Shown here in pieces: positions 2,110 to 23,792 of a stretch of 42,956 nt of DNA. Source of the DNA: Actinomycetota bacterium (GTDB lineage: Bacteria; Actinomycetota; Actinomycetes; S36-B12); assembly GCA_030652695.1 (NCBI GenBank), contig JAUSQD010000106.1:1-42956 (forward strand). The letters run 5' to 3'. The stretch's first letter is position 1; every line of letters begins with the position of its first letter. The notes beneath the pieces were generated by a model. That model worked only from the letters and a program-made list of their open reading frames with translations. It ran no database searches and was not told where the DNA came from. The translations under genes were made by a program, and so were the position numbers.

Positions 2110-3900
2110 ATGAGCAGCGGCGCAACGACACCTATCAGTCTGATCCGGCGAGTAGTGACCGCAAGTACCACAGCAACGCTGCTGCTGGCGGGCCTGACGC
2201 TGGGGTTGTCGACGGCTTCCGCAAGTGGCCAGGCAGCACCACCGGTCGTCGGTTCGGCTCAGCAGACTGGTGTGGTCCGACTGCAGTTGCTGGCGATCAA
2301 CGACTACCACGGCAGTCTTGACAGGACGACGCCCGGCACCGTCGACGGTCAGGCAGGTGGTGGTTCGGAGTTTCTCGCCGCCAAGCTCAGTCAGCTTCGA
2401 GCGGGAAGCAAGCACAGCCTCACCGTTGCCGCTGGCGATCTCATCGGAGGCTCCCCCGCGCTCTCCGGCTTGTTCCACGACGAGCCGTCGGTCGAATCGC
2501 TCAACGCGATGAAGCTCAACGTTTCCAGTGTCGGCAATCACGAGTTCGACGAAGGTGTGGCCGAGCTCCTGCGGATGCAGAACGGCGGTTGCCATCCCGT
2601 CGACGGGTGCTACTTCCCGAGCCAGCCGTTCGCAGGCGCCAACTTCAAGTGGCTTGCCGCAAATGTCATCAACACCTCGACCGGCAAGACACCCCTGCCG
2701 CCCTATTGGGTCACCGAAGTCGACGGCGTCAAAGTCGGTTTCATCGGCATGACATTGGAGGCCACGAACACCCTCGTGGCCGCCTCCGGAGTCGCCGGCT
2801 ACACCTTCCTTGACGAGGTGCGCACAGCCAACCGGCTCGTTCCCGTGCTGAAAAGGCAGGGCGTCGAAACGATCGTCGTGCTGCTCCACGAAGGCGCGAC
2901 GCAGGATCCGGCGCCAGGCGACATTAACGGGTGCGCGCGCATCAGCGGTCCCATCGTCGAGATCAACAGGGCCCTGGACGTCGAGATCGACGCGGTCATC
3001 ACCGGCCACACACATCAGCCCTACAACTGCCGACTCGGCGGTCCGGACGGCGCGCGTCGGATCGTGACCAGTGCGTACTCAAACGGCCGAGTCGTCAGCG
3101 AGGTGAACCTCGTGATCGACAAGCGCACTGGCGATGTGCGGCGCACACTGAGCAAGGCGACCAACCACGCGGTGATCCAGTCGGCGCTGACGCCCGACCC
3201 GGCGCTCACCGCGGTGATCAACAAATGGAACCCGCGGTTTGAGGCCGCCGGCAACACGCCAGTCGGTGCGATCAGCGCCGACATCCTCCGCGGTGGCACA
3301 CCGCCCGGAAACGACCGCGGCGTAGAGTCGCCGCTCGGCAACCTGGTCGCGGACGCGCAGGCGTGGGCAACATCGTTCAACGGCGCGCAACTCGCATTCA
3401 TGAACCCTGGCGGGCTGCGTGCCGACCTGCGCTTCACCCAGTCCGGCGCGGAGGGCAACGGCGTTGTGACCTACAGCGAAGCGTTCGCCGTGCAGCCGTT
3501 CGGCAACACGTTGGTGACAATCCCGATGACCGGCCAGCAGATCGTGTCCGTCCTGAGGCAGCAGTGCCAGCCAGCCGGCTCGTCGCGGCCGTTCCTGTCC
3601 CTGAGCTCATCGGCCGGGTTCACCTACACCCAGTCGCGAACGATCGCGGGCGGGAACTGCACGTCGGTGAACATCACCGACGTGAAACTCAATGGCAAGG
3701 CGCTGGAGCTGGCGGCCACCTACCAGGTGACGACGAACAACTTCCTCGCTGATGGCGGCGACAACTTCACCGCCTTCGCGCAGGTACCTGCGGCGAAGCG
3801 TCTCGCGGGCGGCAACGATCTGCTCGCTCTGACGAACTACCTCAACACCTTCAAGCCGGTGACCTCGCCAGCCACCGACCGCATCAACGAGGTGCCGTAG
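2110..3900 (+). CDS. Secreted bifunctional metallophosphatase / 5'-nucleotidase (UshA-like)
   Basis: Metallophosphoesterase motifs are present: INDYHG, AAGDLIGGS, GNHEFD, LLHEG, GHTH. A 5'-nucleotidase C-terminal-type domain follows. There is an N-terminal signal sequence. I prefer the ATG at 2110 (GGGGAG 6 nt upstream) over the ORF-track start at 2086. Confidence 0.85.
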   Translation: MSSGATTPISLIRRVVTASTTATLLLAGLTLGLSTASASGQAAPPVVGSAQQTGVVRLQLLAINDYHGSLDRTTPGTVDGQAGGGSEFLAAKLSQLRAGSKHSLTVAAGDLIGGSPALSGLFHDEPSVESLNAMKLNVSSVGNHEFDEGVAELLRMQNGGCHPVDGCYFPSQPFAGANFKWLAANVINTSTGKTPLPPYWVTEVDGVKVGFIGMTLEATNTLVAASGVAGYTFLDEVRTANRLVPVLKRQGVETIVVLLHEGATQDPAPGDINGCARISGPIVEINRALDVEIDAVITGHTHQPYNCRLGGPDGARRIVTSAYSNGRVVSEVNLVIDKRTGDVRRTLSKATNHAVIQSALTPDPALTAVINKWNPRFEAAGNTPVGAISADILRGGTPPGNDRGVESPLGNLVADAQAWATSFNGAQLAFMNPGGLRADLRFTQSGAEGNGVVTYSEAFAVQPFGNTLVTIPMTGQQIVSVLRQQCQPAGSSRPFLSLSSSAGFTYTQSRTIAGGNCTSVNITDVKLNGKALELAATYQVTTNNFLADGGDNFTAFAQVPAAKRLAGGNDLLALTNYLNTFKPVTSPATDRINEVP

Positions 3901-6405: not shown

Positions 6406-7506
6406 TTACGGACTGAACGCGAGCACCATGAATCCTGCAAACACGGCGAGGTGCACACCGCCTTGCAACAAAGTGGCCCGACCCGGAGTCACGGTGAGCA
6501 CGCTGACGATCGCGGTGATGCCAAGCAGCACCAGCTCAACAGGCGCTAGTCCGAGTTCAAGCTGGGTATCCAGAATCCACGAAGCCACCGCGACAGCAGG
6601 GATGGTCAGACCAATGCTGGCCATGGCCGATCCGTAGGCAAGATTGAAACTGGTCTGCACTCGTCCACGGCGCGCCGCCCGCCAGGCAGCCAGTGACTCA
6701 GGAAGCAGCACGATCAAGGCAATAGCCACTGCAACAACGGTGATCGGCAACCCTGCATCAACAACGGCGTTCTCGATCGATGGCGAGGCGACCTTTCCCA
6801 GCCCGACGACTGAGATCAGTGCAACGACGAGCAGCACCGAACTTGCCCACACATTGCCGTGATGTTCAGGGCCCGTCGCCCCGGCTTTGGTCGCTGAATC
6901 CGCTGGAGGCAGGAAGTAGTCACGATGTCTGACGGCTTGCACAAACACATAGAGCAGATACAGGCCCAGTGAGGCGATGGCGGCAAAGACCAGCTGTGTC
7001 GTGGTGAACGTGGGTCCGGGGGTGCTCGTCGTGAAAGCCGGCAAGACCAGACTCAAACCGGCAAGGGCGACGATGCTCGCGAGTCCAGCGCCGGTTCCCG
7101 CTGAGTTGAAGCGAGCGATGCCGCCGCGAAACGTGGCGGTGAGGATGGCGAGTCCCACGATGCCGTTGCAGGTGATCATGATCGCCGCAAAGACCGTGTC
7201 ACGAGCCAAGGTCGGCTTGCCAGAGTCCGAAGAGATCATCAGCACCACGATCAGCGACACCTCGATCACGGTTACGGCAACTGCGAGCACAAGGGAGCCA
7301 AAGGGCTCGCCTACCCGTGCGGCGATGACTTCCGCGTGATGCACTGCTGCGACTACGGCGCCACCAAGGAGAAGCAGGGTGACCACCAGCAGGACGCCAC
7401 CCAGATCACGTCCCCACGTCAACGCAAGAAAGACAAGTGCCAAGAGCGGCACCCCAGCAGTCCAGGAAGTCAGGGCGCGCACTATTGAGCTCGCATGTGG
7501 GGCCAC
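6406..7506 (-). CDS. Ca2+/H+ (cation/proton) antiporter, ChaA/CAX-like
   Basis: It is a 366-aa polytopic membrane protein of about 11 helices, with two internally repeated halves carrying acidic intramembrane motifs (VIEVSLIVV; LLPESLAAW). Confidence 0.65.
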   Translation of the reverse strand: MAPHASSIVRALTSWTAGVPLLALVFLALTWGRDLGGVLLVVTLLLLGGAVVAAVHHAEVIAARVGEPFGSLVLAVAVTVIEVSLIVVLMISSDSGKPTLARDTVFAAIMITCNGIVGLAILTATFRGGIARFNSAGTGAGLASIVALAGLSLVLPAFTTSTPGPTFTTTQLVFAAIASLGLYLLYVFVQAVRHRDYFLPPADSATKAGATGPEHHGNVWASSVLLVVALISVVGLGKVASPSIENAVVDAGLPITVVAVAIALIVLLPESLAAWRAARRGRVQTSFNLAYGSAMASIGLTIPAVAVASWILDTQLELGLAPVELVLLGITAIVSVLTVTPGRATLLQGGVHLAVFAGFMVLAFSP

Positions 7507-7581
7507 GGACGAATCATCTCGCGGATGAGTGATGGCAACATCAGGCGTCGAGCAACTTCTGCAGGAGCAGCTTGAGCCTTC

Positions 7582-8196
7582 CTACGCGGAGGGAGCCTGG
7601 AGTTCTGCAGCGCCGAAGGACACTGAGAACCGGTCGCACCAGATGGTCACACTCGTGAGCTTTGAAAGATTGGCCTTAGCCGGGATCTTGTAGTTCTGGC
7701 TTCCCTTGTTCCCCTTGAGCGCTCCAAGGTCCACGTAGGCGCCATCGTCAAAGACAAACCAGCCACTTGGGCCTTCAATGACCGGTGCGTCGGTCAGCCA
7801 GACCTTGAGGTCAGGCCCATTGCTGGTGTCAAGATTCTCGATGCGCAGCACTCGCGAGCCATCGGCCAGGCTGATGATCTTGGCGGTCCCAGAGGTCCCG
7901 TGTTCATGACTGATGAACTTCCCAGTGGTCAGCACCTTGGCCGCCTTGGTGGCGGGTGCAGGTGAGGATGCGGCCGAAGGAGCAGCCGACCGCGAGGGCT
8001 CACGCGAAGGGGCCGGCGATGTCGTTGGGCTGGCAATGGCTTCGACGGGCGCGCTTGCCGCTATCGGGGAGGGTTCATTGACTGTCGTGTCGGTGAACAA
8101 TTTCCAGGGCTGGAACAAGTACATCCCCACGGTCAGCGCCCCCACGGCGATGATGGCGACTGGAACCAGAATCATTGGGCGAAAGAACGACTTCAC
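7582..8196 (-). CDS. Membrane-anchored DM13 domain protein
   Basis: The C-terminal region reads GKFISHEHGTSGTAKIISLADGSRVLRIENLDTSNGPDLKVWL ... VTIWCDRFSVSFGAAEL, which matches the DM13 pattern. It has an N-terminal TM helix and a Pro/Ala/Ser linker. I prefer the GTG at 8196 (GGAG 5 nt upstream) over the ORF-track ATG at 8289. Confidence 0.7.
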   Translation of the reverse strand: MKSFFRPMILVPVAIIAVGALTVGMYLFQPWKLFTDTTVNEPSPIAASAPVEAIASPTTSPAPSREPSRSAAPSAASSPAPATKAAKVLTTGKFISHEHGTSGTAKIISLADGSRVLRIENLDTSNGPDLKVWLTDAPVIEGPSGWFVFDDGAYVDLGALKGNKGSQNYKIPAKANLSKLTSVTIWCDRFSVSFGAAELQAPSA

Positions 8197-8388
8197 GTGA
8201 GCTCCTCTGGTGGATGCGGGCGCAAGTGGAGCTCCCACGCGGCCTTGGACGTGCAATGCAGAGTATGCGTTCCCAGATCCAGAACCCAAAAAATCAAACT
8301 GGCGATGATTGACACCAATCCGCCCCTGCCGTGGCTACGAACTCCCCTGTGAAAGCACCACCCATCACTCATCCACTGGGAGTCACTT

Positions 8389-9435
8389 GTGAAAACTTCA
8401 ACCAAGACAGCGATTGCGGGAGCAGGTGCTGCCACGCTCGTTCTTGCGTTCGCAGGACCACAGCTCATCGCAGGGGCTGCTGACCACCTCGATGCGCCGG
8501 GCCTCACTGCACCCTCGGGTCGCGCAGACGCAGATATCACCGACATGTACGCATTCCAAGGCAAGAATCCAAAGAACACCGTGCTGGTCATGAACACCGG
8601 GCCCGGCGCTGGCGCAATCGCTCCCCTTGATTACGGCAGCGATGTGCAATATGTGATCTCCGTTGACAAGAACGGTGACGCAAAGCGCGACGAGGCATTC
8701 GTCTTCCGCTTCGGAGCAGGCAACAAGACTGGCAAGGGTCAGGCGTACACCGTCACGAAGTACGTCGGAGCCAACGCTGGTTCGCTCAAGAAGGGCAGCA
8801 TTGTCACGACGGGCGTCACCGGCACCACGAAGATGATCGGCAAGAGCTCAAAGGTCTTCGCGGGCCTTCGCTCTGATCCCTTCTTCTTTGACCTTGATGC
8901 TTTCCAGGGCGCAGTTGGCGGCAACGGCAACGGCCGCACCTTCTGTGACGCAAAGGCGACCGACTTCTTTGCACCGCTGAACGTCAACTCGATCGTGCTT
9001 GAGGTTCCCGACAGTTCACTCGGAAAGAACATCGGCGTATGGGGCATGACCGTGCAGCCAAGTGGTCGCGTTGACCGCATGGGTCGTCCGGCCATCAACA
9101 CGGTGTTCAACAAGGGCGCAGACAAGAACGCGTTCAACGTGACACTGCCAGTGAACGATCCAGCGCTGTACCGCACCAATGTGATCAACACGCTGAAGGC
9201 CCTCGGAAAGTACACCGATGAAGCAGCCGGCAAGTTGGCCGACGTTCTGCTGCCAGACATCTTGACCTACGACACCAGCACCAAGGCCGCTGGTCCTCTC
9301 AATGGTCGCGCACTTGGCGATGACGTCATCGATGCCGAACTCGGCATTGTCACTCAAGGCGGAATCAAGGGTGACTGCGTAGCAGCTCACACCGACTACA
9401 GCACTTCGTTCCCTTACCTGGGCGCAGCGCACTAG
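8389..9435 (+). CDS. Secreted DUF4331-like protein
   Basis: It has a signal peptide, then HLDAPG, DITDMYAF, LRSDPFFFDLDAF and GRPAINTVF. I associate these motifs with DUF4331. GGGAG lies 7 nt upstream of the GTG start. Confidence 0.7.
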   Translation: MKTSTKTAIAGAGAATLVLAFAGPQLIAGAADHLDAPGLTAPSGRADADITDMYAFQGKNPKNTVLVMNTGPGAGAIAPLDYGSDVQYVISVDKNGDAKRDEAFVFRFGAGNKTGKGQAYTVTKYVGANAGSLKKGSIVTTGVTGTTKMIGKSSKVFAGLRSDPFFFDLDAFQGAVGGNGNGRTFCDAKATDFFAPLNVNSIVLEVPDSSLGKNIGVWGMTVQPSGRVDRMGRPAINTVFNKGADKNAFNVTLPVNDPALYRTNVINTLKALGKYTDEAAGKLADVLLPDILTYDTSTKAAGPLNGRALGDDVIDAELGIVTQGGIKGDCVAAHTDYSTSFPYLGAAH

Positions 9436-9443
9436 TCAGCTTG

Positions 9444-9479
9444 GGAGGTGGTGGTGAGCCCATGCTCATCGCCACCTCC
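9444..9479 (+). other. Intercistronic stem-loop between the DUF4331 gene and the TPR gene
   Basis: GGAGGTGGTG (9444-9453) pairs with CGCCACCTCC (9470-9479), giving 10 bp including one G-U pair. An inner GAGC/GCTC pairing lies within the 16-nt loop. No T-tract follows. Confidence 0.35.
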
Positions 9480-9521
9480 ACCCCAGTTTCGAAATGAGAC
9501 CAAAGCCGAGAGGTCACCACC

Positions 9522-11033
9522 GTGCCGACGATCACCCCCAGCTCGCAAGGTTCAGCAGCTCATGAACACCCACACCCGCATCCACACGGACACGGACATG
9601 GGGATGACCACATTCATGGCGATGATGATGGACACGGTCCACATCGCGAGTCGCGCAGCCGTTTTCTTGGACCTGCTGCAGCAGTCATTGGGATATCAGT
9701 CGTCTTGGTCGCCCTTGGCTACTTCGTTCGATCCGAAGGCCCTGAGAGCGCTCCCTACGCAGAGTTCACGCTCTCTGATGCTGCCGATGTCACCACGCCA
9801 CCGCTGCCCGCGACTACGGGCAGCGGCATCACACTCGCGGACAATGCGACGCAGCAGACCATTGACCGACTTCAAGCCAGCACCGCAGCTTCAGCCACCT
9901 CGGGCCAACTGGGCCTGCTCGCTCGGCTGCTGCTCCAACGCGCTGCAGTGACAGGCGACGCAACCGCATACACGCGAGCCCTGGCAACATTGGACCGCGC
10001 AGTAGCACTAGCCCCAAACAATCTCGACATTCGCGCGCAACGAGCATCGGCTCGCATCACCACCCACGAGTTCATCGCAGCAGGGCGAGACGCAGAGCGA
10101 GTACTGGCAAGCAACCCTGATCATCCAGGTGGCCTCGCGGCTGGATTTGACGCTGCACTGGAAACCGGCAACATCTCCTTGGCACAGCGCCACCTGGCTC
10201 GGCTCGTCCGGCTTGCCCCTGAGTCACCACAGGTTCTCTACCGTCAATCTCGGTGGGCTGAATTGAACGGCAACACGGCGCAGGCAGCAGCGTTTGCCTC
10301 CCAGGCCCGCATCGCTGCTGAAGACGCCGGCCTTGTGGGGACCAGTCGCGCCAGCTACGAATTGCTTGCCGGAAAGCTTGCGATCGACGAAGGCAACTAC
10401 CCCATCGCCATCAGTGCCTACGAGGCGGCACTTGTGGCGGCACCTGGATGGCACGCAGCCCTTGCCGGTCTCGGACGAGCGCAAGCGGCGGCCGGCGATT
10501 TGCGCAGCGCGGAACAGTCGCTGAGCAAATCGTCCGATGCGCTTCCGCTGCCGGACACTCTGAGCTCGCTCGGAGATGTGCGCACTGCCCTTGGCGACAT
10601 TGCCGGAGCCAAAGTCGCGTACGGAACTGTCGATGTGGTTGCGCAGTTGGAGTCAGTGCATCAACTCTTCAACCGGGCCATCGTTGTCTCACAGGCTGAT
10701 CGGGGAATCAACACCGCATCCGCCGTTCGCGATGCTCGTGCCGAGTTGAAGACGCGCAAGGACGTCTACGGATACGACGCACTTGCCTGGGCATTGCTTG
10801 CCAACGGTCAGCCGAAGCAGGCAGTGCAGTTCGCCGACGCATCTCTTGCGCTCGGAACCAAGGATCCGCGCCTGCTCGCACACGCTGGGTTGGTCTATGC
10901 GGCAGCCGGTGAAGTCACCAAGGCCAAGGCCTCACTGACTCGGGCCCTTGAGCTGAGCCCGAGCTTTGAGCCCGTGCTTGTCGAACGAGCCAAGGTTGCT
11001 CTATCTCAGCTCAACGCAGGAGTTGCAGCGTGA
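9522..11033 (+). CDS. Single-pass membrane protein with a His-rich N-terminal tail and an extracytoplasmic TPR-like repeat domain
   Basis: The N-terminus reads HEHPHPHPHGHGHGDDHIHGDDDGHGPH. Next come RESRSRF and a TM helix (AAAVIGISVVLVALGYFV). About 430 aa of Ala/Leu-rich repeats of TPR type follow. It has a GTG start with GAGAGG upstream. Confidence 0.6.
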   Translation: MPTITPSSQGSAAHEHPHPHPHGHGHGDDHIHGDDDGHGPHRESRSRFLGPAAAVIGISVVLVALGYFVRSEGPESAPYAEFTLSDAADVTTPPLPATTGSGITLADNATQQTIDRLQASTAASATSGQLGLLARLLLQRAAVTGDATAYTRALATLDRAVALAPNNLDIRAQRASARITTHEFIAAGRDAERVLASNPDHPGGLAAGFDAALETGNISLAQRHLARLVRLAPESPQVLYRQSRWAELNGNTAQAAAFASQARIAAEDAGLVGTSRASYELLAGKLAIDEGNYPIAISAYEAALVAAPGWHAALAGLGRAQAAAGDLRSAEQSLSKSSDALPLPDTLSSLGDVRTALGDIAGAKVAYGTVDVVAQLESVHQLFNRAIVVSQADRGINTASAVRDARAELKTRKDVYGYDALAWALLANGQPKQAVQFADASLALGTKDPRLLAHAGLVYAAAGEVTKAKASLTRALELSPSFEPVLVERAKVALSQLNAGVAA

Positions 11034-12655
11034 AGCGGCGGATCGCCTCTGCGATGCTCGGCACAGTTGCCGCAGGCGCATTCGCCGCAATAGCGATGGC
11101 ACCGGTCGCCTCTGCGCATCCGCTGGGCAACTTCACCCACAACACCTACGTGGGCTTTGCGATCAGCCCAGATCGCATCCAAGCCGATCACGTGCTTGAT
11201 CTGGCCGAGATTCCCAGCTTCCAGGCGCGCAGTGGCATGGACGCCAATGGCGACGGATCCCCATCGGCCGCCGAATCCCAGGCTTGGGCAGATGCTCGGT
11301 GCCTGGCAGCTGCGAGCCAGATCAAGGCATCGACAGATCTGGGAGCAGTGAACTGGTCAGTCGGCAAATCAACCATCACCTTTCCGCAGGGCCAGGCCGG
11401 ACTGTCCACCACGCGGCTGGTCTGCGCATATGAGGCGGCGATTGCTGATGCCAGTTCATTCAGCGCAGTCGTGTCAATTGAAGAGGGCCGCACCGGATGG
11501 CATGAGATCACGGCTCGAGGCGAGGGCGTTCGCCTCAGCGCCGACGTGCCCACCACATCAACGAGTGCCCGTCTGACCGCCTACCCAGTTGATGCCAGTC
11601 CAGCGGACTTCACCACTGTTCAGGCGCGGTGGAACGGCGCCGCTCCAGTTGCTGCAGGCACGACCACTCAAGAAGTCCAAGCCCCAGCTCCAGCCGTTGA
11701 GTCAACTACCGCTGCCGCAGCCACGACGATCGCTCCCTTTGGTCTGGACGGACCTACACAGGCCTTCACCAACCTCATCAGCGAGCAGGACCTGACTGTG
11801 GGCTTTGGGCTCCTGGCGTTGTTGATCGCGATCGGGCTGGGGGGGCTGCACGCTTTGGCCCCAGGTCACGGAAAGACCTTGATGGCTGCCTCGCTGATTG
11901 GCACCAACGGACGCAAGCGTGATGCCGTGGTGCTGGGTGCTTCGGTCACCACAGCACACACTGCAGGTGTTGTAGCCCTGGCGCTGGTGCTTTCGATCTC
12001 ATCCGCATTCGCTGCCGAATCGACCTACCCGTGGCTGGGATTGTTCAGCGCTGTGCTTGCAATCGGCGTTGGTGTCAGCTTGTTGCGCCAGGCTCGGCGG
12101 GGCGGGGGATTGGGCCACCACCACGGTCTCGGCGGTGGACACTCACACGGCACCCACGCACATGTTCATCACGACCACGACGATCATCATGACCACGGTT
12201 CAGATCATCCGCACCCGCATGACGAGTCACCTCACCCGCACCCTCACGCACACCCACACGAACAGACGGCCGGCTCCTTGGCCCTGGCCACGTCAGTGTC
12301 AGCTGCTCCGGCAGTCACGACGACTCCCCGCAACCGCCGCATCATCGCGCTGGGTTTGGCCGGTGGCATGGTTCCCTCCCCGTCGGCGGTGGTCATTCTG
12401 CTGGCTGGATTTGCACTGGGGCGTGCGTGGTTCGCCTTGCTTTTGGTGTTGGCGTACGGGATCGGCATGGCACTGACCCTTTGCTTCACTGGTCTGCTGC
12501 TGGTACACGCCGGCAATCTCTCAGAGCGCGTCGTCGCAGGAACTGCAGTGCCGCGTCCGGTTGCCGCCGTACTGAAGCATTTGCCGTTGATCGCTGCGAT
12601 CACCGTCGTTGCCGCTGGCATCTGGCTCGCAGTGCGGAGTCTTGTCGCCCTGTAG
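11030..12655 (+). CDS. RcnA/NicO-type nickel/cobalt transporter family protein fused to an N-terminal ectodomain, with a His-rich loop
   Basis: The signal peptide ends in VASA. An ectodomain of about 240 aa begins HPLGNFTHNTY. The membrane core carries GLHALAPGHGKTLMAA. A His-rich loop (GHHHGLGGGHSHGTHAHVHHDHDDHHDHGSDHPHPHDESPHPHPHAHPH) splits the core. The start overlaps the upstream stop as GTGA. Confidence 0.7.
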   Translation: MKRRIASAMLGTVAAGAFAAIAMAPVASAHPLGNFTHNTYVGFAISPDRIQADHVLDLAEIPSFQARSGMDANGDGSPSAAESQAWADARCLAAASQIKASTDLGAVNWSVGKSTITFPQGQAGLSTTRLVCAYEAAIADASSFSAVVSIEEGRTGWHEITARGEGVRLSADVPTTSTSARLTAYPVDASPADFTTVQARWNGAAPVAAGTTTQEVQAPAPAVESTTAAAATTIAPFGLDGPTQAFTNLISEQDLTVGFGLLALLIAIGLGGLHALAPGHGKTLMAASLIGTNGRKRDAVVLGASVTTAHTAGVVALALVLSISSAFAAESTYPWLGLFSAVLAIGVGVSLLRQARRGGGLGHHHGLGGGHSHGTHAHVHHDHDDHHDHGSDHPHPHDESPHPHPHAHPHEQTAGSLALATSVSAAPAVTTTPRNRRIIALGLAGGMVPSPSAVVILLAGFALGRAWFALLLVLAYGIGMALTLCFTGLLLVHAGNLSERVVAGTAVPRPVAAVLKHLPLIAAITVVAAGIWLAVRSLVAL

Positions 12656-12741
12656 ACCAGCGCGCCTGGGAAGCACCACGTCGAATGGCCGATATTCGGA
12701 CAGATCACATCTGCTCACGAATCATCTGGGCGACAGCAGGG

Positions 12742-14226
12742 GTGATAAACGTTTACTCTGGTCCAGTGAGATCCCGCTCGGCAGCGCCACAACAGTCAGG
12801 CTTCTCGCGTCTTTGGTGGGCAACAGCTATCGGCGGAGGCATCGCAATCGTGGCGATTGCGATCTTGCCTGTTGACTCATTTCAGCGTTCGTTTGTGGCT
12901 CGCGGACTAGGTATCGCGGCCATTGCTCTGTTCTTCTATGCAATGACATCACTGCCTTCAGCCGTGCGCAAGATCTGGCTCTGGGTCGGGGTATTTCTCG
13001 TCATCACCGTGATCGCTGACATGATCTTTGACTACCAGGCGCTGGTCTTGGAAGTTCGGCCCTTCCCGGGCATCACGGATGTCCTGTACATCTCGGCATT
13101 CATCTGCGCAGTGACAGGTCTCATCAAGCTGTCTCGCTTGTTGAATCCTCGTGCAGATGTTGCCGCCTGGATTGACATCTCAATCATGGTGATTGCTGCC
13201 TCCGCATTCATCGGAATCTTCGTGATCAACTCAATGTGGGAAACGAGTGAAGTCTTCAGCATCACCAGTGCTCTGGATTTAATCTACCCACTGCTTTCAC
13301 TTCTTCTGCTGACTGCATTGGTGCGCTTGTTCATTCTGCCGCACTCACGAAATATTGCCATCACATTGCTCGGTGCATCATGTGTGTGCTTCCTGGCGTG
13401 CGATTTGATTTTCAGCAACCAGCTCATTGTGGGACGCACACCTGTCGTCGCCATTGAGGTGCTGTGGGCAGCAGCGCTCATCTGCCTGCCTCTCGCAGTC
13501 ATGTCGCCCGGAGCCTCGCAGTTCACGCCGGTTGACTCAAGACGAGCGAGCGAGGTCACCCCGACTCGACAGGTGCTCATCGGCGTGAGCGCGATTGGCG
13601 TCCCAGCAGTGGTGCTCGTGGAACTCCTGCTGACTGGGACTCTGGTGGCGAATTGGCTGCTCCCAGTGATCATCGTGATGGTTGCGCTTGTGCTGTTGCG
13701 GCTGCACCTGCTGCTGCGCGCTTCACAGCGACAGACAACAGCCCTCGCGGCTCTGGCCTTCACCGACGCACTCACCGGCCTGCCCAATAAGCAGGGCTGG
13801 GATCTTCGCGTGCAAGAGCTGCTTTCGCAAGTGCGCGAAGGCAGCGATGTATGCACAATTGCGATGCTCGACATTGACAATTTTACTGGGCATCGCGAAT
13901 CGAAATCACAACACCAGGTTGACCTGCTCTTGATTTCCGCCAGCCTTGCCTGGCTTGCGGAGTTGTCCGTCGAAGATGTGCTGGCCAGATGCGGCATGGA
14001 CGAGTTTGCACTCTTGATTCGACGCTCGTCCCTTGCAGAAACTCAGGAGGTCTTGCGCCGAGTCCTGCGTTCAACTCCAGCTGACCTTTCGGTCTCGGTC
14101 GGCGCCGCGCTGCTTCGTCAGGACGAAGACCCAGCTCAAGCCCAGGCACGCGCCTCCAGCGCGCTGTATGCGGCGATGGCCGAGGTCCAGCCCATGTCAG
14201 ACATTGAGCAGCCCATTCCTAGCTAA
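12742..14226 (+). CDS. Polytopic membrane protein with a degenerate C-terminal GGDEF domain (CGMDEF)
   Basis: It has about 9-10 TM helices, then DALTGLPN, MLDIDNF, RCGMDEFALL, SVGAA and ALYAAM. I chose the GTG at 12742 because the start context (cagcaggg GTG ..aaac.tttactctg) is duplicated at the paralog's start at 14268. The ORF-track start at 12427 lies inside the upstream gene. Confidence 0.7.
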   Translation: MINVYSGPVRSRSAAPQQSGFSRLWWATAIGGGIAIVAIAILPVDSFQRSFVARGLGIAAIALFFYAMTSLPSAVRKIWLWVGVFLVITVIADMIFDYQALVLEVRPFPGITDVLYISAFICAVTGLIKLSRLLNPRADVAAWIDISIMVIAASAFIGIFVINSMWETSEVFSITSALDLIYPLLSLLLLTALVRLFILPHSRNIAITLLGASCVCFLACDLIFSNQLIVGRTPVVAIEVLWAAALICLPLAVMSPGASQFTPVDSRRASEVTPTRQVLIGVSAIGVPAVVLVELLLTGTLVANWLLPVIIVMVALVLLRLHLLLRASQRQTTALAALAFTDALTGLPNKQGWDLRVQELLSQVREGSDVCTIAMLDIDNFTGHRESKSQHQVDLLLISASLAWLAELSVEDVLARCGMDEFALLIRRSSLAETQEVLRRVLRSTPADLSVSVGAALLRQDEDPAQAQARASSALYAAMAEVQPMSDIEQPIPS

Positions 14227-14267: not shown

Positions 14268-15755
14268 GTGTCAAACCTTTACTCTGAGCACGTGACATCA
14301 CGCCAATCGCTTGCGGACACCAATGGCTTCTCGCGCCAGTGGTGGATCACCGCAATTGGCGGGGCATTGGTCCTGGTTTCGCTTGCCTTCATTGACGTGG
14401 ACTCTGTCGAGAGAGCGGTGCTTGGTCGTGTCGCGGGCATGGTGGCGAGCGTCATCCTGCTGGGCGCCATCTTGACCATGCCAAAATCAGTCAGATCAGT
14501 GTGGTTGTGCATGGGCACCTTCTTGTTGCTCACGGCTATCGCTGACGTGATCTACGACTATCAAGACCTGATACTGGAGATATCGGCATTCCCCGGTATT
14601 GCCGACGGGTTCTACCTGGTGTCCTACATCTTTGCGATTACTGCGCTGTTCCTGCTCGCCCGCAAGATGAATCCTGGCGCTGACTTGTCGTCATGGATCG
14701 ACATTCTGATCATGTTCGTCGCGGCCTGCGCAATCGTCGGGGCCTTTGTGATCGCGCCTGGCTGGACTTCGACTACGCAGATGGATCTGCCAACCATTTT
14801 GTGGCTGACCTATCCCCTCCTCGATCTCGTGCTGCTGGCAGCACTGACTCGCTTGCTGATGCTCCCGCACGCGCGCAACCCTGCCATCAGTCTGCTGGCA
14901 GTTTCCATGGCACTCTTCCTTGCCTACGACTTGCTGTTCAACAACCAGTTGCTGTCTGCCGACTGGACCCCTGCCAATGCGATGGAGTTGGTCTGGTCGG
15001 CTGCCTACCTCTGCCTTGCGCTGGCCGCATTGTCCCCGGGAGCACGGCAGTTCGTGCCCGTGGATCCTTCACGCGTAGGCGTGGTGACCACCACTCGGCA
15101 ACTCATGATCGGGATTGCCGTGCTGGCAGTGCCGGCCATCATCCTTCTGGAACTGAGCATCGCAGGCGAAGTGGTGTTGTACTGGCTGGTGCCTGGGATC
15201 GTGCTCTTGCTCGCTCTTGTGCTGATCCGGATGCACTTATTGCTGCGCACCTCACAGCGACAGGCCTCTGCGTTGGACGAGCTTGACCGAAAGGATCTCC
15301 TTACTGGTCTACCGAATCGCACCACGTGGAACACTCAACTCAGTTCACGAGTCTCATCCACGTCGGAGACTGGCACGGTGATCACGATCGCCATTGTGAG
15401 CATCGACAATTTCACTGAATTGCGGCAGGCCAAGAGCCAGCACATTGGTGATCTCCTGATCATCTCCGCCACGATCGCCTGGCTCGGCGAACTCACATCG
15501 ACCGATGTGCTCGCGAAGTACACGGACAATGAGTTTGCCGTCCTCATTCAACGCGATTCTGTCGCGCAGACTCAGGAAGTCCTGCGGCGCCTGCTCCGGG
15601 CAAGCCCGCAGGGCATGCACGTTTCCTCCGGTGCTGCACTCCTGCGCGCTGACGAGGAACCGGTTGAAGCCGAAAGACGAGCAGCAAAATCACTGCGTGC
15701 ATCGCAATCCGGCAGCGCGATTCAGTCCGCGTTGGATGAGAACATCACGAACTGA
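14268..15755 (+). CDS. Paralogous polytopic membrane protein with a more degenerate GGDEF domain (YTDNEF)
   Basis: It has the same architecture as the upstream gene and aligns with it along its full length by eye. Its motifs are DLLTGLPN, IVSIDNF, KYTDNEFAVL, SSGAA. Confidence 0.7.
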   Translation: MSNLYSEHVTSRQSLADTNGFSRQWWITAIGGALVLVSLAFIDVDSVERAVLGRVAGMVASVILLGAILTMPKSVRSVWLCMGTFLLLTAIADVIYDYQDLILEISAFPGIADGFYLVSYIFAITALFLLARKMNPGADLSSWIDILIMFVAACAIVGAFVIAPGWTSTTQMDLPTILWLTYPLLDLVLLAALTRLLMLPHARNPAISLLAVSMALFLAYDLLFNNQLLSADWTPANAMELVWSAAYLCLALAALSPGARQFVPVDPSRVGVVTTTRQLMIGIAVLAVPAIILLELSIAGEVVLYWLVPGIVLLLALVLIRMHLLLRTSQRQASALDELDRKDLLTGLPNRTTWNTQLSSRVSSTSETGTVITIAIVSIDNFTELRQAKSQHIGDLLIISATIAWLGELTSTDVLAKYTDNEFAVLIQRDSVAQTQEVLRRLLRASPQGMHVSSGAALLRADEEPVEAERRAAKSLRASQSGSAIQSALDENITN

Positions 15756-17794: not shown

Positions 17795-17962
17795 TCATCC
17801 TCCAACAGCACGACAGCCCTCATGGCAACACGAAGTCTATTGACTGGCCCAGATGTGACGAGCGCGACAACCGGTGTTGTGGAGGCAGGCCAATCGCGAC
17901 AATGACGTACGCTGAATGACCGGCCGTTGGCCACACCCCACCAAATTTGCAGGAGCACAGTC

Positions 17963-19573
17963 TTGACCGAGGTACACGGCCGCAAGCGAGTCGAGGTCAC
18001 GGCTGCGGCCGTCACCACGATCGGCGTGATCATCGCCGTGTTCGCTCTGCTGATGGTCGGTCTCTCAAATTCGGCACGGGCTGGTGAAGCACTGCCAGGT
18101 GACAGCCCAGCACCTGGCGCCTCTGACTCCTCCTCCCCAAGCGCGACGCCCGATCCCACCGCCAGCGGCTCGACATCACAAATCAAGAACGTGGTCATGT
18201 TGCTTGCAGACGATCTGGACTGGACGGCGTTCAATCAGGTGCCGCGCCTTGCGGCCTTGAAGAATGCCGGAACTACTCTCACCGACTTCGTCGTGACCAA
18301 TTCGCTTTGCTGCCCCTCACGCACTTCCTTCATGCGCAGTCAATTCGTGCACAACCATCGCGTGATTTCCAATGTGGCCGAAACCGGCGGCGGCTGGCCA
18401 AAGTTCTATGCACGTGGCCTGCAGAAGGACTGCCTGCCCACCTGGCTTCAGGATGCAGGGGTCAACACCTCACTGTTTGGCAAGTACTTGAATGGATTTC
18501 CGATTGGCACACCTTCGGAGAACTACATTCCCCCGGGCTGGGACTACTTCGAAACCTCAACCTCAAAGAATCAGGCATATGAGGGATTCAACTACACGCT
18601 GAACGTCAATGGGACTCTGGAAAAGTACGGCTCAGCACCCAATGAGTTTCTCAACGACGTGCTGACTCTGGATGCAGCGCAGTACCTCTCAACAGCGCAA
18701 ACACCTTTCTTCATGCTCTACGCCTCATACAACCCTCATACTCCCTTCCCTGCCTCACCACAGAACACTCAAACGCACCTGACGGATGTCCAACCACGCG
18801 TCCCGTCCTTCAATGCCAAGGGCACCAATGAAGTGAGCTGGCTGGCAGATCTGCCAGCATTGACGGCCAAGCGTGTGGACAATCTCGACAATCTGTGGCG
18901 CAAGCGCCTGCGATCAGCAGAGTCAGTTGCTGACTCCTACGACGCACTCCGAGCGCAGCTCCAAGCTTCGGGCAAGCTCGATGAGACGCTCATCATTGTG
19001 ACGTCCGACAACGGGTATCACGCAGGAGTGCATCGACTGTCGACCGGCAAGCAGTCGGCATTCCGCGAGGACGCTGTAGTGCCAGCGGTCTTCATTGGGC
19101 CTGGCATTGCCCAGGGCGCAACGATCAGCAAGACGACGTCCATGGTTGATCTCGCGCCGACAATCAGCGACATCTTCCAAGCCCCGACTCCCAGTTTTGT
19201 CGATGGTCGCAATCTGATGCCGCTGCTGAATGGCCAGGCAGACGCGCCTTGGCGGACGGCCACGCTCACCGAGAGTCTCTCGCGGACCCAGCCAGGTGAT
19301 CCCGACTATTCACGTGTCGTGCCACCCAACTTCCACGCTCTTCGAAGTCAGCAGTGGCTCTATGTCGAGTACGTCAATCGCGAGGTCGAGCTCTACGACC
19401 TGGTGAATGATCCCTACGAGATGAGCAACATTGCCCGCACAACGAATCCGGCGATCCTGGCTCAACTCCACGCTCAGCTCGACGCGATGAAGACATGCAC
19501 AGGGGAGAGCTGTCGCGTTGCCGACAGCATGCCCAACGGAACCATTAGTTCGCCAGCATTACTCGTTCAATGA
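17963..19573 (+). CDS. Membrane-anchored Cys-type (formylglycine-dependent) sulfatase
   Basis: Sulfatase motifs are LLADDLDW, LCCPSRTSFMRSQF (CxPSR), TSDNGYH and GKQ. It has an N-terminal TM helix and a Ser/Pro linker. I prefer the TTG at 17963 (AGGAG 7 nt upstream). The ORF-track ATG is at 17927. Confidence 0.8.
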   Translation: MTEVHGRKRVEVTAAAVTTIGVIIAVFALLMVGLSNSARAGEALPGDSPAPGASDSSSPSATPDPTASGSTSQIKNVVMLLADDLDWTAFNQVPRLAALKNAGTTLTDFVVTNSLCCPSRTSFMRSQFVHNHRVISNVAETGGGWPKFYARGLQKDCLPTWLQDAGVNTSLFGKYLNGFPIGTPSENYIPPGWDYFETSTSKNQAYEGFNYTLNVNGTLEKYGSAPNEFLNDVLTLDAAQYLSTAQTPFFMLYASYNPHTPFPASPQNTQTHLTDVQPRVPSFNAKGTNEVSWLADLPALTAKRVDNLDNLWRKRLRSAESVADSYDALRAQLQASGKLDETLIIVTSDNGYHAGVHRLSTGKQSAFREDAVVPAVFIGPGIAQGATISKTTSMVDLAPTISDIFQAPTPSFVDGRNLMPLLNGQADAPWRTATLTESLSRTQPGDPDYSRVVPPNFHALRSQQWLYVEYVNREVELYDLVNDPYEMSNIARTTNPAILAQLHAQLDAMKTCTGESCRVADSMPNGTISSPALLVQ

Positions 19574-21827: not shown

Positions 21828-21871
21828 GTTTGGTCAGGAGTTCCACAAGTGCGCTGTAGTAGGCTCAGCGG

Positions 21872-22768
21872 GTGAATTTGGGATCCGATGACTGCCTCAA
21901 TCCAGTACTCGTAGGTGGCACCGGCCGCAGCGGATCGACCATTCTCGGTCAGATTCTTGGCCATCATCCTGAGCTCATGCTCACTGATCCACCCGAGATC
22001 CGATTCCTGGCAAATGACCACGGCGTCGCTGAAGCACTGACCATGGCAACGGGCTCACTGCGTCACCGCCTGCGCTCCAAGCGCGAGGCACGCCTGTGTC
22101 TTGAGCGAACCAAGACACTCTGGTTCTGGCGGGCGGCCAAAATTGGCCTGCACACCTCGATCACCATCGAAGAGCTGAATGCCCTGGGTGAGACCTATCT
22201 CGCGGAGTTCGGCAAGGATCCGGTTGCCGCATCGCAGAAGTTCACGTTCGCGATCATGTCGAAGGTGGCCCGTGAGGCCAAGGGTCGACGCTGGGTGGAC
22301 ACCACGCCAGCCAATGCCCGCATCTCCGAGCAGATTGAGCCGATCTACCCGCAGTCACAGGTGATTGCGATGATCCGCGACGGGCGCGATGTGGCGGCGT
22401 CTTTTGTCGAGCAGAATTTCGGCCCGAATGAGATCTTCGCCTCCCTGCGCCAATGGGAGAAGCGCACCCTTCTGATTCACCAGGCCACACTGGCAAGCGC
22501 CCCGGGACGCTGCATCATCGTGGACATGCTTGATCTGGTGGATCGTGAGCGAGATCAGACCCTGCAGCGCATTTGCGACTTCCTCAATGTGCCGGTGGAT
22601 TCAGGGATGAAGTCGTGGTTTGACGACACCGTGAATGCAGAGAACGCGCACGTCGGTCGGTGGCGCACACAGTTCGACTCAGCGACCACGCTGGAAATCG
22701 ATCGCGTCTATGGCGAAATGGTCGAGCAATTGCGCGACCAAGGAGTCCAGATCCCCCTTGTTTCCTGA
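21872..22768 (+). CDS. PAPS-dependent sulfotransferase family protein
   Basis: The 5'-PSB-like motif is VGGTGRSGSTILG and the 3'-PB-like motif is MIRDGRDVAASF. It has no signal peptide, so it is probably cytoplasmic. The start is GTG and is uncertain by a few codons. Confidence 0.7.
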   Translation: MNLGSDDCLNPVLVGGTGRSGSTILGQILGHHPELMLTDPPEIRFLANDHGVAEALTMATGSLRHRLRSKREARLCLERTKTLWFWRAAKIGLHTSITIEELNALGETYLAEFGKDPVAASQKFTFAIMSKVAREAKGRRWVDTTPANARISEQIEPIYPQSQVIAMIRDGRDVAASFVEQNFGPNEIFASLRQWEKRTLLIHQATLASAPGRCIIVDMLDLVDRERDQTLQRICDFLNVPVDSGMKSWFDDTVNAENAHVGRWRTQFDSATTLEIDRVYGEMVEQLRDQGVQIPLVS

Positions 22769-22828
22769 GACGATGCAATCAGGGGCAGGCGAACCGGCCC
22801 GAAATGAAGGCAACAGGACTTCTAAGGT

Positions 22829-23770
22829 ATGGAGTCCCATGAAAAAAGTAGGCAATCGATGAGCGAGACCACGGAGACTGTGAGCCGACCGGTTCAGACC
22901 TTCTTGCCGCATCGCGCTGGCCTGCCCCGCCTCAGCACCTATTTCGTCACTCTGTGGCGCCGACGTCACTTTGCGATCGAACTCTCGCGAGCCTCGATGC
23001 GAGCCGCACACACCAACACCTTCTTCGGGCAGTTCTGGCTGGTCATCAGCCCAGCTCTGAATGCCGTCGTGTACTTCCTCCTGGTCAACATCATCCGCGG
23101 CGGCAACAGCGGTCCGGACTTCTTCCTTCACTTGCTGGCCGGCTTGTTCGCCTTCAACTTCATCTCAGCCACGATGAGCGCTGGCGCGAATTCGGTCGTC
23201 AGTGGCGGCAGTCTCGTGCTCAACACCGCTTTCCCACTGTTATTGCTGCCATGGTCTGCGCTGCGCACGGCCTTCTTCCGCTTCCTGCCCTCACTCATCA
23301 TCCTGTTGGCCTTCTTCAGCTACTTTGCCTTCATCGGACCCCACCCGGTGGCCTGCGATGCGGCTGGCGCCTGTGTCGAGCTCAACACGGTTCACTTCAG
23401 CCCAGTTCAGCTCATGGCCATCCCAGCATTCATGCTGATATTCGTCTTCGCAGCTGGTCTGGCTGCACTCATGGCAACCGTGCAGGTCTACTTCCGCGAC
23501 ACCACGCAGTTCTTGCCGTACGCCACCAGAATCTGGCTCTACTTGTCACCGGTGCTGTACTACGCCGACCAACTGCAGCCGTGGATGCTGAAGCTGGAAT
23601 ATTTCAATCCTCTGTTCCCCATGCTCGGCATCTGGACCGACACGCTTGCTCGCGGAATCATGCCGCCCATGAGTTGGTGGCTGGGCTCAGCAGCCTGGGC
23701 ATTTGGGACTCTGCTGATCGGAACCTTCTACTTCATTTCGCGCGAACGAGAGTTTGCGGTGCGCATTTGA
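22829..23770 (+). CDS. ABC-2 type polymer-export permease (TagG/Wzm-like)
   Basis: It has about 6 TM helices. The N-terminal segment is typical of this family (LWRRRHFAIELSRASMRAAHTNTFFGQFWLVISP). It lies immediately upstream of the cognate ATPase. Confidence 0.75.
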   Translation: MESHEKSRQSMSETTETVSRPVQTFLPHRAGLPRLSTYFVTLWRRRHFAIELSRASMRAAHTNTFFGQFWLVISPALNAVVYFLLVNIIRGGNSGPDFFLHLLAGLFAFNFISATMSAGANSVVSGGSLVLNTAFPLLLLPWSALRTAFFRFLPSLIILLAFFSYFAFIGPHPVACDAAGACVELNTVHFSPVQLMAIPAFMLIFVFAAGLAALMATVQVYFRDTTQFLPYATRIWLYLSPVLYYADQLQPWMLKLEYFNPLFPMLGIWTDTLARGIMPPMSWWLGSAAWAFGTLLIGTFYFISREREFAVRI

Positions 23771-23792
23771 CCAGGACCGTGAATCGAGGTGA

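Follow-up and report, generated by a model that had tools for sequence, protein, structure and literature searches.

A three-gene operon for a DUF4331 protein, a membrane-anchored TPR protein and a permease with a predicted N-terminal histidine: a candidate system for transition-metal capture and import

Three consecutive genes at positions 8389–12655 of contig JAUSQD010000106.1 (assembly GCA_030652695.1), from an Actinomycetota bacterium, are the subject of this analysis; the stretch that was examined, positions 1–42,956 of this contig, is referred to below as the window. An earlier note, made from the sequence without database searches, had described these genes as an envelope metal-handling operon built around an uncharacterized DUF4331 protein. 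The coordinates that it gave for the three same-strand genes proved exact (Table 1), and so did its coupling of the last two genes through a GTGA stop/start overlap, which lies at 11030–11033. A gap of 86 nt lies between genes 1 and 2, and each of the three start codons is preceded at a distance of 6–8 nt by a purine-rich ribosome-binding site (GGGAG, GAGAGG and AGGAG for genes 1, 2 and 3, respectively). As the genes lie on the same strand, are separated by a short gap or overlap, and each have their own ribosome-binding site, they most likely form a single operon. Their products are a DUF4331 protein that is secreted, a membrane protein that crosses the membrane once and exposes a domain of tetratricopeptide repeats (TPRs) on the outside, and a permease that carries a large ectodomain. 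We propose that the operon is a module for the capture and import of a transition metal at the cell envelope, controlled by an extracytoplasmic function (ECF) sigma factor, and we give this interpretation roughly even chances.

Gene 1 matches the Pfam model of DUF4331 with an E-value of 1.7e-38 and a score of 133.4 bits (cutoff 27). The motifs from which it had initially been assigned to this family (HLDAPG, DITDMYAF and GRPAINTVF) correspond to invariant columns in an alignment of 24 gene 1 sequences, and about 95 columns past the N-terminal motif are likewise invariant, including many aspartates, a cysteine pair and a C-terminal H-x-D. The family is large and comprises 4509 clusters at 50% identity (E ≤ 1e-3). 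Cleavage of the signal peptide is predicted at AGA|ADH, so the mature protein would start with A-D-H. Small residues occupy positions −1 and −3 in all homologues, whose mature starts conform to [A/S]-[D/S]-H (e.g. ADHLDAP, SSHREAP and SDHQD). From the family we selected 150 representatives at 50% identity, 112 of which include the N-terminal region. A mature start of the X-X-His type is predicted in 107 of these 112, and five do not fit. The histidine is brought into place in two ways: 95 representatives acquire an X-[D/S]-H start at the signal-peptidase site, and 12 acquire it by methionine excision (M-[A/S]-D-H). The latter (P0291, P0297, P0305, P0314–P0316, P0325, P0332, P0353, P0367, P0368 and P0370) have no signal peptide and appear to be cytoplasmic; methionine excision would keep their histidine at mature position 3. 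In the long DUF4331 forms of Streptomyces, Proteobacteria and Nostoc, the corresponding start is A|SSHREAP or A|SDHQD. A histidine at position 3 of a free N-terminus constitutes the amino-terminal Cu(II)- and Ni(II)-binding (ATCUN) motif. With the predicted cleavage, the A-D-H start of gene 1 agrees with the sequence rule for such sites, which is a histidine at position 3 and no proline at position 2. Nothing argues more strongly for the importance of the free N-terminus of DUF4331 proteins than the retention of this position whichever of the two maturation routes is used.

A model of the gene 1 protein calculated with AlphaFold2 (AF2) had a mean predicted local distance difference test score (pLDDT) of 69 and a predicted template modelling score of 0.73. 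When this model was compared with the Protein Data Bank (PDB) using Foldseek, only weak matches to Ig-like folds were obtained, none at E ≤ 1e-3, and a sequence search of the PDB with gene 1 found nothing. In these searches no similarity of fold or sequence between DUF4331 and any enzyme was found. DUF4331 was absent from the ∼8 million full texts that were searched, PF14224 and PF13795 likewise returned no paper, and a literature search for a secreted bacterial protein family defined by an ATCUN site found none. Three DUF4331 genes of Streptomyces (locus L081, 4972–6516; locus L083, 5911–7521 and 11270–12919) encode long forms of ∼510–550 residues that end in a hydrophobic segment and a basic tail. 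These C-terminal features, together with the presence in Streptomyces anulatus of a second DUF4331 gene that is followed by a sortase gene, suggest an attachment of the long forms to the cell wall or to the membrane.

The product of gene 2 has the architecture described in the earlier note, with a His/Asp/Gly-rich tail containing 11 histidines, one transmembrane (TM) helix with positive charges (RESRSR) on its N-terminal side, and a TPR region beyond the membrane. Several Pfam TPR models score above their cutoffs: TPR_2 (56.8 bits, cutoff 27), TPR_14 (48.3 bits, cutoff 23.5), TPR_19 (46.2 bits, cutoff 25), TPR_9 (44.2 bits, cutoff 35) and TPR_16 (41.4 bits, cutoff 32.7). The matches fall within residues 281–491. 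The arginine-rich side preceding the TM helix is kept in the homologues. By the positive-inside rule, the TPR domain and the gene 3 ectodomain are predicted to lie outside the membrane and the His-rich loop of gene 3 inside. The 11 histidines of the tail compare with 0–3 in 62 homologues (counted over the 60 residues before the TM helix), and by this comparison the His-rich character of the tail is specific to the window. Gene 2 belongs to a distinct orthologous family, in which His182 is present in 67 of 67 sequences, Phe184 in 66 of 67, and His454 is nearly invariant. The family with His182 extends to Nostoc, Streptomyces, Adhaeribacter, Marinobacter, Lichenicola and Pseudoalteromonas. The invariance of His182 across phyla and the near invariance of His454 suggest that the TPR protein does more than provide a scaffold.

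Gene 3 encodes a signal peptide (residues 1–29), an ectodomain that extends to residue ∼254 and a membrane core interrupted by a 48-residue His-rich loop (residues 363–410), in agreement with the initial description. Hydrophobic segments at residues 255–273, ∼300–330, 334–352, 438–456, 454–486 and 517–535 give the core the layout of RcnA-type transporters, in which two groups of three TM segments flank a central cytoplasmic His-rich loop. The motif HAxxPGHGK of TM1 is found in all 40 clustered gene 3 homologues and is nearly invariant in an alignment of the family (alignment A2). The claim that the core is of the RcnA/NicO type held for one family model and for close homologues, and failed for the Pfam NicO model on gene 3 itself. 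The NCBIfam model of RcnA-type Ni/Co efflux transporters (NF007454) aligns over nearly its whole length (gene 3 residues 259–539 to model positions 12–279 of 283) with an E-value of 1.7e-36 and 125.9 bits, which is under the curated cutoff of 195. The Pfam NicO model (PF03824) gave no match at E ≤ 10, irrespective of whether the whole protein, either half or the core without the His-rich loop was searched. It does recognize homologues above its cutoff of 27.7 bits, namely P0005 (44 bits), P0104 (52.6 bits) and the proteins of Nostoc (41.9 bits) and S. anulatus (30 bits); P0005 aligns with gene 3 along its full length at 56% identity (E = 7.7e-186). The core is thus best described as RcnA/NicO-like, that is, as a relative of the RcnA-type subfamily and not a member of it, to judge from these comparisons. 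For many homologues, the name supplied with the sequence is nickel/cobalt exporter or RcnA. The His-rich loops of the homologues contain from 3 to 24 histidines in the richest 50-residue window, and the loop of the gene 3 protein lies at the high end of this range.

The ectodomain of the gene 3 protein provides the second predicted N-terminal histidine of the system. Cleavage is predicted at VASA|HPLGNFT and would leave an ectodomain of ∼225 residues with histidine at mature position 1 (His1). The start A|HPLGNFT is present in every N-terminus-bearing member of the 40 clustered gene 3-type proteins as well as in the Nostoc and Streptomyces proteins, and alignment A2 shows no variation at H1, P2, L3, G4, F6, N9, D28 or E31, numbered from the mature start. 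An AF2 model of residues 30–258 had a mean pLDDT of 79.9, with values above 90 for residues 10–150. A Foldseek search of 350,542 PDB chains with this model returned as the top match entry 9GCE (E = 2.5e-5, probability 1.0), which is the Cu-bound Ang-1 domain of a HupE/UreJ-2 protein; the template modelling scores of 0.34 and 0.44 are moderate. The next matches were to the Zn-binding proteins PA4063 and ZrgA (probability 0.96–0.98).

Ectodomains with such a His1 were recently named anglerases and were proposed to 'fish' for metal and to feed it to the permease (PMC12537917, Nat Commun, October 2025). In that work RbAng-1a used a mono-histidine brace, made up of His1 and Asn41, to bind Cu2+ (Kd 74 nM) and Ni2+ (Kd 220 nM), MmAng-2a bound Cu2+ with a Kd of 62 nM at a predicted site comprising His1 and Asp33, and the tested domains had no substantial oxidase or peroxidase activity (PMC12537917). 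Ang-1 domains were limited to Pseudomonadota and Ang-2 domains to Actinomycetota, both on HupE/UreJ-2 permeases; the main text does not mention DUF4331, TPR or NicO, and a supplementary table of neighbours lists DUF4331 with a count of 2 (PMC12537917). The gene 3 protein likewise proceeds from a signal peptide and a predicted His1 through a modelled β-sandwich with helices between strands 2 and 3 and a linker to a multi-TM permease of Ni type, and one of its invariant acidic residues close to position 30 (D28 or E31) is comparable to Asp33 of the Ang-2 pair. It differs in the membrane core, which is RcnA/NicO-like and not HupE/UreJ-2 (PF13795), and in its own signature HPLGNFT. No sequence similarity to 9GCE was detectable in a profile search of the PDB with the ectodomain. 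When the ectodomain was compared with five HupE-type ectodomains, hhalign gave a probability of only 28%, and BLASTP against HupE-type ectodomains gave nothing significant. The relation to the latter is indicated by the predicted fold, the position of His1 and the operon context, and on the modelled structure the gene 3 protein is an anglerase-like domain on a different permease superfamily (NicO/RcnA).

The conservation of the triad was analyzed in both directions, with genes in relatives defined by clustering of open reading frames across loci. A scan of one genome per species with the DUF4331 alignment yielded 80 loci (gene 1 identity 43–82%) from Actinomycetota, Acidimicrobiia, Chloroflexota/Limnocylindria, Dormibacterota and a few other groups. 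The TPR gene lies directly 3' of the DUF4331 gene in 60 of the 65 loci with enough downstream DNA. A gene for an ectodomain fused to a NicO core follows in 42 of 64 loci, and the full triad is present in order in 41 of these 64. A metagenome scan with the gene 3 alignment yielded a further set of 80 loci, in which the TPR gene is directly upstream of the gene 3-like gene in 42 of 54 cases and a DUF4331 gene is found upstream in 26 of 33. These counts exclude chance adjacency of the three genes. The complete triad is represented in Actinomycetota, in Chloroflexota and in Nostoc. The triad also occurs in the chromosome of Streptomyces sp. NBC_00210, on a plasmid of S. anulatus (along with the second DUF4331 gene and the sortase gene) and on pNPUN01 of Nostoc punctiforme PCC 73102, where the gene 3 product is annotated as 'TauE/SafE' and starts with ADA|HPLGNFTINHY. 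In Proteobacteria, the third gene after those for DUF4331 and the TPR protein encodes a HupE_UreJ_2 permease (PF13795, E = 3.1e-43), which likewise has a signal peptide, His1 at the mature start and an ectodomain, here ∼170 residues long; such operons are found on Marinobacter adhaerens pHP-187, in Lichenicola, on a Comamonadaceae plasmid and in Pseudoalteromonas CF6-2. All gene 3-type and HupE-type partners that were examined have His1 at the mature start. Adhaeribacter (Bacteroidota) and Miltoncostaea have only the DUF4331-TPR pair. By these patterns the conserved core consists of DUF4331 and the TPR protein, and the usual third partner is a His1-headed permease with either of two membrane cores. 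The earlier note had named missing model support and co-occurrence confined to close relatives among the outcomes that would speak against its proposal; what we found was support from the family models, for NicO by way of close homologues, and co-occurrence across several phyla.

Other genes recur at some of these loci. A GlcD-like oxidase, a SorC regulator, an FGGY kinase, an ABC ATPase and others in loci without gene 3 were rejected as partners and represent lineage-specific housekeeping synteny. In proteobacterial operons a small extra gene is located between the DUF4331 and TPR genes (L084, 7455–7700; L090, 7508–7813; L085, 7543–8061); it encodes a lipoprotein-like product of 81–101 residues in Marinobacter and Comamonadaceae and a Big_9/cadherin-like Ig protein in Pseudoalteromonas. 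A gene for homogentisate 1,2-dioxygenase (hmgA) lies within ∼5 kb of DUF4331 in Streptomyces (L081, 1–945) and Pseudoalteromonas (L085, 340–1641), which may be a coincidence. Near the left end of the window, at 326–1579 on the minus strand, there is a gene of the phage integrase family. Upstream of the triad the window has DM13 and ChaA genes, as opposed to sigK-rskA in close relatives, and the module is common on plasmids (41 plasmid records). The nearby integrase gene, the differing upstream regions and the plasmid records suggest that the module moves as a cassette.

A candidate promoter precedes gene 1. The ECF-type motif listed in Table 1 has its sole match in the 43-kb window at this position, with 0.03 matches expected by chance, and a scan of positions 7500–13200 for sigma-70 promoters found none. 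The same motif is located 5' of gene 1 in L001, L003–L009, L032, L077 and the Streptomyces loci L081 and L082, and 5' of the sigK gene itself in L004, L005 and L050. A looser form (ATCC-N15–17-CGAA) precedes gene 1 in 43 of the 80 loci, compared with a background of 0.026 per 320 nt. The motif appears to resemble the SigK consensus. An ECF sigma factor gene adjoins the DUF4331-TPR pair in 23 of the 80 loci, mostly followed by an anti-sigma factor gene, and this is also observed in Pseudoalteromonas. The adjacent sigma factor of L005 scores 276.7 bits against the NCBIfam SigK model (NF007228, cutoff 226), and the adjacent anti-sigma factors carry an RskA_C domain. A promoter common to the operon and to its sigma factor gene is the signature of an autoregulated ECF regulon, which the shared motif points to here. 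The interaction between SigK and RskA has been described as redox-sensitive (PMC7509140). No sigK or rskA gene was found in the 43-kb window. It does encode an ECF-like sigma factor fused to DUF6596 (41004–42296, minus strand), which is not of the SigK type (25% identity to the SigK of L005 over 134 residues) and is probably not the regulator of the operon. The relative L007 has a further copy of the motif at 11091–11117, after gene 1 and before gene 2. In the divergent intergenic region of the window, a terminator-like hairpin with a 10-bp stem followed by a T-run on the minus strand (8295–8322) overlaps the −35 part of the SigK-type promoter.

Table 1. Features of the three-gene operon and its immediate surroundings (positions in the window; residue numbers refer to the unprocessed proteins)
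Feature	Position	Strand	Evidence
Membrane-anchored DM13-domain protein, divergent neighbour	7582..8289	-	PF10517, E=3.4e-32
ECF (SigK-type) promoter-like motif CCAATCCG-N15-CGAA (CCMATCCR-N15-CGAA), 48 nt 5' of gene 1 start	8315..8341	+	Motif scan
Gene 1, secreted DUF4331 protein, 348 aa	8389..9435	+	Pfam PF14224
Gene 1 signal peptide, residues 1-30, ending I-A-G-A	8389..8478	+	Hydrophobic segment 9-27
Gene 1 predicted mature N-terminus A31-D32-H33, ATCUN-type X-X-His	8479..8487	+	Invariant columns
Gene 2, membrane-anchored TPR protein (one TM helix, N-terminus inside, TPR domain extracytoplasmic), 503 aa	9522..11033	+	Pfam TPR, hydropathy
Gene 2 cytoplasmic His/Asp/Gly-rich tail, residues 13-41, 11 His	9558..9644	+	Homologue comparison
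Gene 2 TM helix, residues 48-66	9663..9719	+	Hydropathy 2.29; RESRSR on N side
Gene 2 His182, invariant in TPR partner family	10065..10067	+	67/67 sequences
Gene 3, permease with signal peptide, ectodomain headed by His1 and RcnA/NicO-like core of six TM segments, 541 aa	11030..12655	+	NF007454; homologues with PF03824
Gene 3 His30, predicted mature His1	11117..11119	+	A|HPLGNFT in homologues
Gene 3 ectodomain, residues 30 to ~254, predicted anglerase-like beta-sandwich and EF-hand-like DxNGDG loop	11117..11791	+	AF2, Foldseek
Gene 3 RcnA/NicO-like core: TM1-3, His loop, TM4-6	11792..12652	+	Hydropathy; NF007454
Gene 3 TM1 motif H-A-L-A-P-G-H-G-K, residues 274-282	11849..11875	+	Homologue alignment
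Gene 3 cytoplasmic His-rich loop, residues 363-410, 21 His	12116..12259	+	Sequence

In the module that we propose, an ECF sigma factor of the SigK/RskA type, with its gene at another place in the genome, would drive transcription. The gene 1 protein would be secreted, and its cleavage would expose A-D-H as an ATCUN-type site, where Cu(II) or Ni(II) would be bound on the outer side of the membrane. The gene 2 protein, inserted with its N-terminus inside, would hold or dock the soluble DUF4331 protein beside the permease through its TPR domain, and its invariant His182 may join in the transfer of the metal. Mature His1 of the gene 3 protein, probably together with Asp28 or Glu31, would form a mono-histidine brace that takes the metal over, and the ectodomain would then swing it to the mouth of the six-TM RcnA/NicO-like channel (with motifs HAxxPGHGK in TM1 and GGxVPSPS in TM4). 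On the inner side the metal may be received and buffered by the 21-His loop and by the His-rich gene 2 tail of this organism. The earlier idea of metal capture outside the membrane is strengthened by the predicted ATCUN-type N-terminus of DUF4331, by His1 of gene 3 and by the modelled fold of the ectodomain. Its companion, cytoplasmic buffering by the two His-rich segments, fared less well: both segments are real, and the gene 2 tail is confined to the window and the gene 3 loop is variable. As the tail is not conserved and the loop spans 3–24 histidines among homologues, such buffering is, on this comparison, an accessory trait that is especially developed in this organism.

Within this scheme we infer the metal binding by DUF4331, the order of hand-off, the preference for import over export and the identity of the metal. 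ATCUN sites and the published anglerase data point to copper or nickel, and the NicO and HupE families point to nickel or cobalt. In a rough apportioning we hold copper and nickel to be equally possible, each a little short of even, and any other metal to be unlikely. Import is favoured because the same partners pair with cores of the HupE type, and because of the published model of anglerase function. Only importers are known from the HupE/UreJ-2 family (Brito 2010, cited in PMC12537917).

Several observations weigh against the capture-and-import scheme. The AF2 model of DUF4331 is of low confidence in its N-terminal part, which is compatible with a flexible tail and is no proof of one. The link between the gene 3 ectodomain and Ang-1 is structural only, as modelled, and sequence homology was not found. 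ATCUN sites bind Cu(II) far more tightly than the 74 nM of the anglerase, and therefore a downhill hand-off of Cu(II) would require reduction or a ternary intermediate. No metal-specific regulator was found in the window, an Rfam scan of its whole length returned no riboswitch, B12 and NiCo types included, and neither of these elements nor a neighbouring metal enzyme was found that would decide the metal. About a third of the DUF4331-TPR loci have no adjacent permease, and DUF4331 genes stand alone in Sulfitobacter and on one Streptomyces plasmid; these loci and the 12 representatives without a signal peptide indicate that DUF4331 has a role that is not strictly dependent on this permease. With respect to the direction of transport, the best match of the core among the family models is RcnA, an exporter, cytoplasmic loops rich in histidine typify exporters like RcnA and those of the CDF family, and the only match in a PDB sequence search with gene 3 is to the His-rich loop of the zinc transporter ZnT7.

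The last group of observations would fit a system for efflux and detoxification, in which the RcnA-like core exports Ni, Co or Cu, the His-rich loop and the gene 2 tail gather it in the cytoplasm, re-entry is stopped by the His1 ectodomain and the ATCUN protein as outer acceptors or sinks, and the ECF switch operates under metal or envelope stress. The names of the homologues (exporter or RcnA), the very His-rich gene 3 loop with the additional cytoplasmic gene 2 tail, the ECF sigma/anti-sigma control that is typical of stress responses, and a CopB-like P-type ATPase near the system in L079 and L080 agree with such a function. We nevertheless regard efflux as unlikely. The same DUF4331-TPR pair and His1 ectodomain are coupled in Proteobacteria to HupE/UreJ-2 cores that are known only as importers, the loop is reduced to as few as 3 histidines in homologues, so it is not essential to the mechanism, and the P-type ATPase is adjacent in only ∼4 of 174 loci. 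Moreover, the published model for His1 ectodomains on permeases is one of capture and uptake (PMC12537917).

A different division of roles would make DUF4331 the end user of the metal, that is, a secreted metalloprotein, with the TPR protein as its chaperone or assembly factor and the His1 permease as the supplier. The ∼95 invariant columns of DUF4331 exceed the needs of a simple metal-carrying tail, and the permease-less loci, the solitary genes and the forms without a signal peptide would all be accommodated, as would the long forms that are probably anchored to the wall or membrane, one of them encoded beside a sortase gene. Membrane TPR proteins are also known to chaperone exported apo-proteins in cytochrome c maturation. 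Such a maturation pathway seems quite improbable to us, since our searches found no resemblance of DUF4331 to any enzyme in fold or sequence, and the strictest conservation concerns the position of a histidine relative to the free N-terminus, which speaks for metal chelation rather than catalysis. In addition, substantial oxidase or peroxidase activity was absent from the tested anglerase domains (PMC12537917). Finally, DUF4331 and the TPR protein could act as an outer sensor that reports metal or envelope status to RskA, the permease being a mere member of the regulon. The placement of sigK-rskA by the DUF4331-TPR pair in 23 of 80 loci and in Pseudoalteromonas would suit a signal input, as would the fact that the stimulus sensed by RskA is not known (PMC7509140). 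The operon itself, however, bears a SigK-type promoter, which marks it as an output of the sigma factor, most loci, including that of the window, have no adjacent sigma factor, and DUF4331-TPR is tied more tightly to the permease than to sigK. A sensory role is accordingly very improbable.

The genes around the operon were inspected as well. The divergent neighbour of gene 1 encodes a DM13-domain protein that could be a redox partner or could stand there by coincidence. Among ∼170 related loci, DM13 lies beside the system in L036 only; in this Dormibacterota locus it is encoded at 2726–3259 on the minus strand, after sigK-rskA and divergent from DUF4331. With two loci in all, DM13 was rejected as a conserved partner, and it is at most a possible accessory that is weakly linked to the module. 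Directly after gene 3 there are two paralogous genes for multi-TM GGDEF proteins (12427–14226 and 14268–15755, plus strand); the first of these reading frames overlaps the end of gene 3, and its true start is probably located further 3'. The region 17927–24620, which encodes a sulfatase, a 760-residue protein with GT2 and CDP-glycerol glycerophosphotransferase domains, a sulfotransferase, an ABC-2 permease and the ATPase of the latter, resembles in its gene content a locus for a polymer of the wall teichoic acid type, which may add sulfate. A 672-residue fusion of CopD and Caa3_CtaG, of the copper-handling/cytochrome oxidase assembly type, is encoded at 28579–30597 on the plus strand, 16 kb away from the triad and with no link to it by synteny. 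In metagenome-assembled genomes of Acidimicrobiia, the CopB-like P-type ATPase has a His-rich N-terminus and is encoded on the minus strand a few kb from DUF4331-TPR-sigK-rskA (L079, 11026–13086; L080, 14951–17029); its adjacency was dropped as a clue to the metal, given the number of loci.

In a broader perspective, we suggest tentatively, and with less than even confidence, that DUF4331 is an unrecognized ATCUN-headed metal-binding family which, together with the TPR protein and an anglerase-type His1 permease, forms a relay for the acquisition of Cu(II) or Ni(II) in at least five phyla and constitutes a core output of SigK/RskA. If this is true, the relay would give the long-unexplained SigK regulon a function in metal acquisition and the large DUF4331 family a testable one. 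The SigK-type promoter of the operon may help to explain what SigK/RskA systems respond to. The anglerase concept would be extended to a second permease superfamily (NicO/RcnA) and to two conserved partners that were not recognized in the original description (PMC12537917). The ATCUN site, the TPR repeats, the anglerase-like domain, the NicO core and the logic of capture followed by a permease are all of known kinds; what appears to be new with respect to the literature searched is the NicO-core variant of the anglerase, the ATCUN-headed DUF4331, the DUF4331-TPR-permease triad and its SigK-type control. The prediction is defined at the level of single residues, namely His33 (gene 1), His30 (gene 3) and His182 (gene 2). 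As the module is present in cultured hosts, including Streptomyces sp. NBC_00210, S. anulatus, N. punctiforme PCC 73102, M. adhaerens HP15 and Pseudoalteromonas, experiments are feasible.

Among known systems, the promoter and regulatory genes most resemble mycobacterial SigK-RskA: the sigma factor of L005 passes the SigK model, the adjacent anti-sigma factors have the RskA_C domain, and one promoter motif is common to sigK and the operon. The SigK regulon of Mycobacterium tuberculosis (mpt70, mpt83 and a few others) is not known to include DUF4331. The membrane core is closest to the Ni/Co efflux system RcnA/RcnB of Escherichia coli, which belongs to the NicO family. The core of gene 3 spans nearly the whole RcnA-type model, shares the arrangement of two groups of three TM segments around a central His-rich loop, and resembles E. 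coli RcnA in the TM1 motif H..PGH.K. RcnA also has a partner in the periplasm, RcnB, which may be likened to DUF4331 in position and is unrelated to it, but RcnA is an exporter that has neither the signal peptide nor the ectodomain of gene 3. Classical HupE/UreJ proteins are secondary Ni permeases whose processed N-terminus is also a histidine, and their HupE_UreJ_2 relatives replace the NicO core in the proteobacterial operons. Classical HupE, however, belongs to a different membrane fold family, has no large ectodomain and has no described link to DUF4331 or TPR proteins. ZrgA of Vibrio cholerae and PA4063 of Pseudomonas aeruginosa have a β-sandwich like that of the ectodomain model and are accessory to metal uptake, but they are free periplasmic Zn-binding proteins that have no His1 brace and work with ABC transporters.

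Known ATCUN sites are found in serum albumin (DAH) and in the ectodomain of human Ctr1 (MDH), a metal importer that carries the site on its outer face and acquires Cu(II) there before taking it up. DUF4331 shares with these proteins the free N-terminus and the histidine at position 3, and its predicted site differs in heading a large, conserved, folded protein that is encoded separately from the permease. A parallel to the logic of the triad is the copper uptake system YcnI/YcnJ of Bacillus subtilis (DUF1775 and a CopC-CopD fusion), in which a protein with an N-terminal His brace is found beside a permease that has its own His1 domain. The families are unrelated, YcnI/YcnJ includes no TPR protein, and it is controlled by a repressor rather than by an ECF sigma factor.

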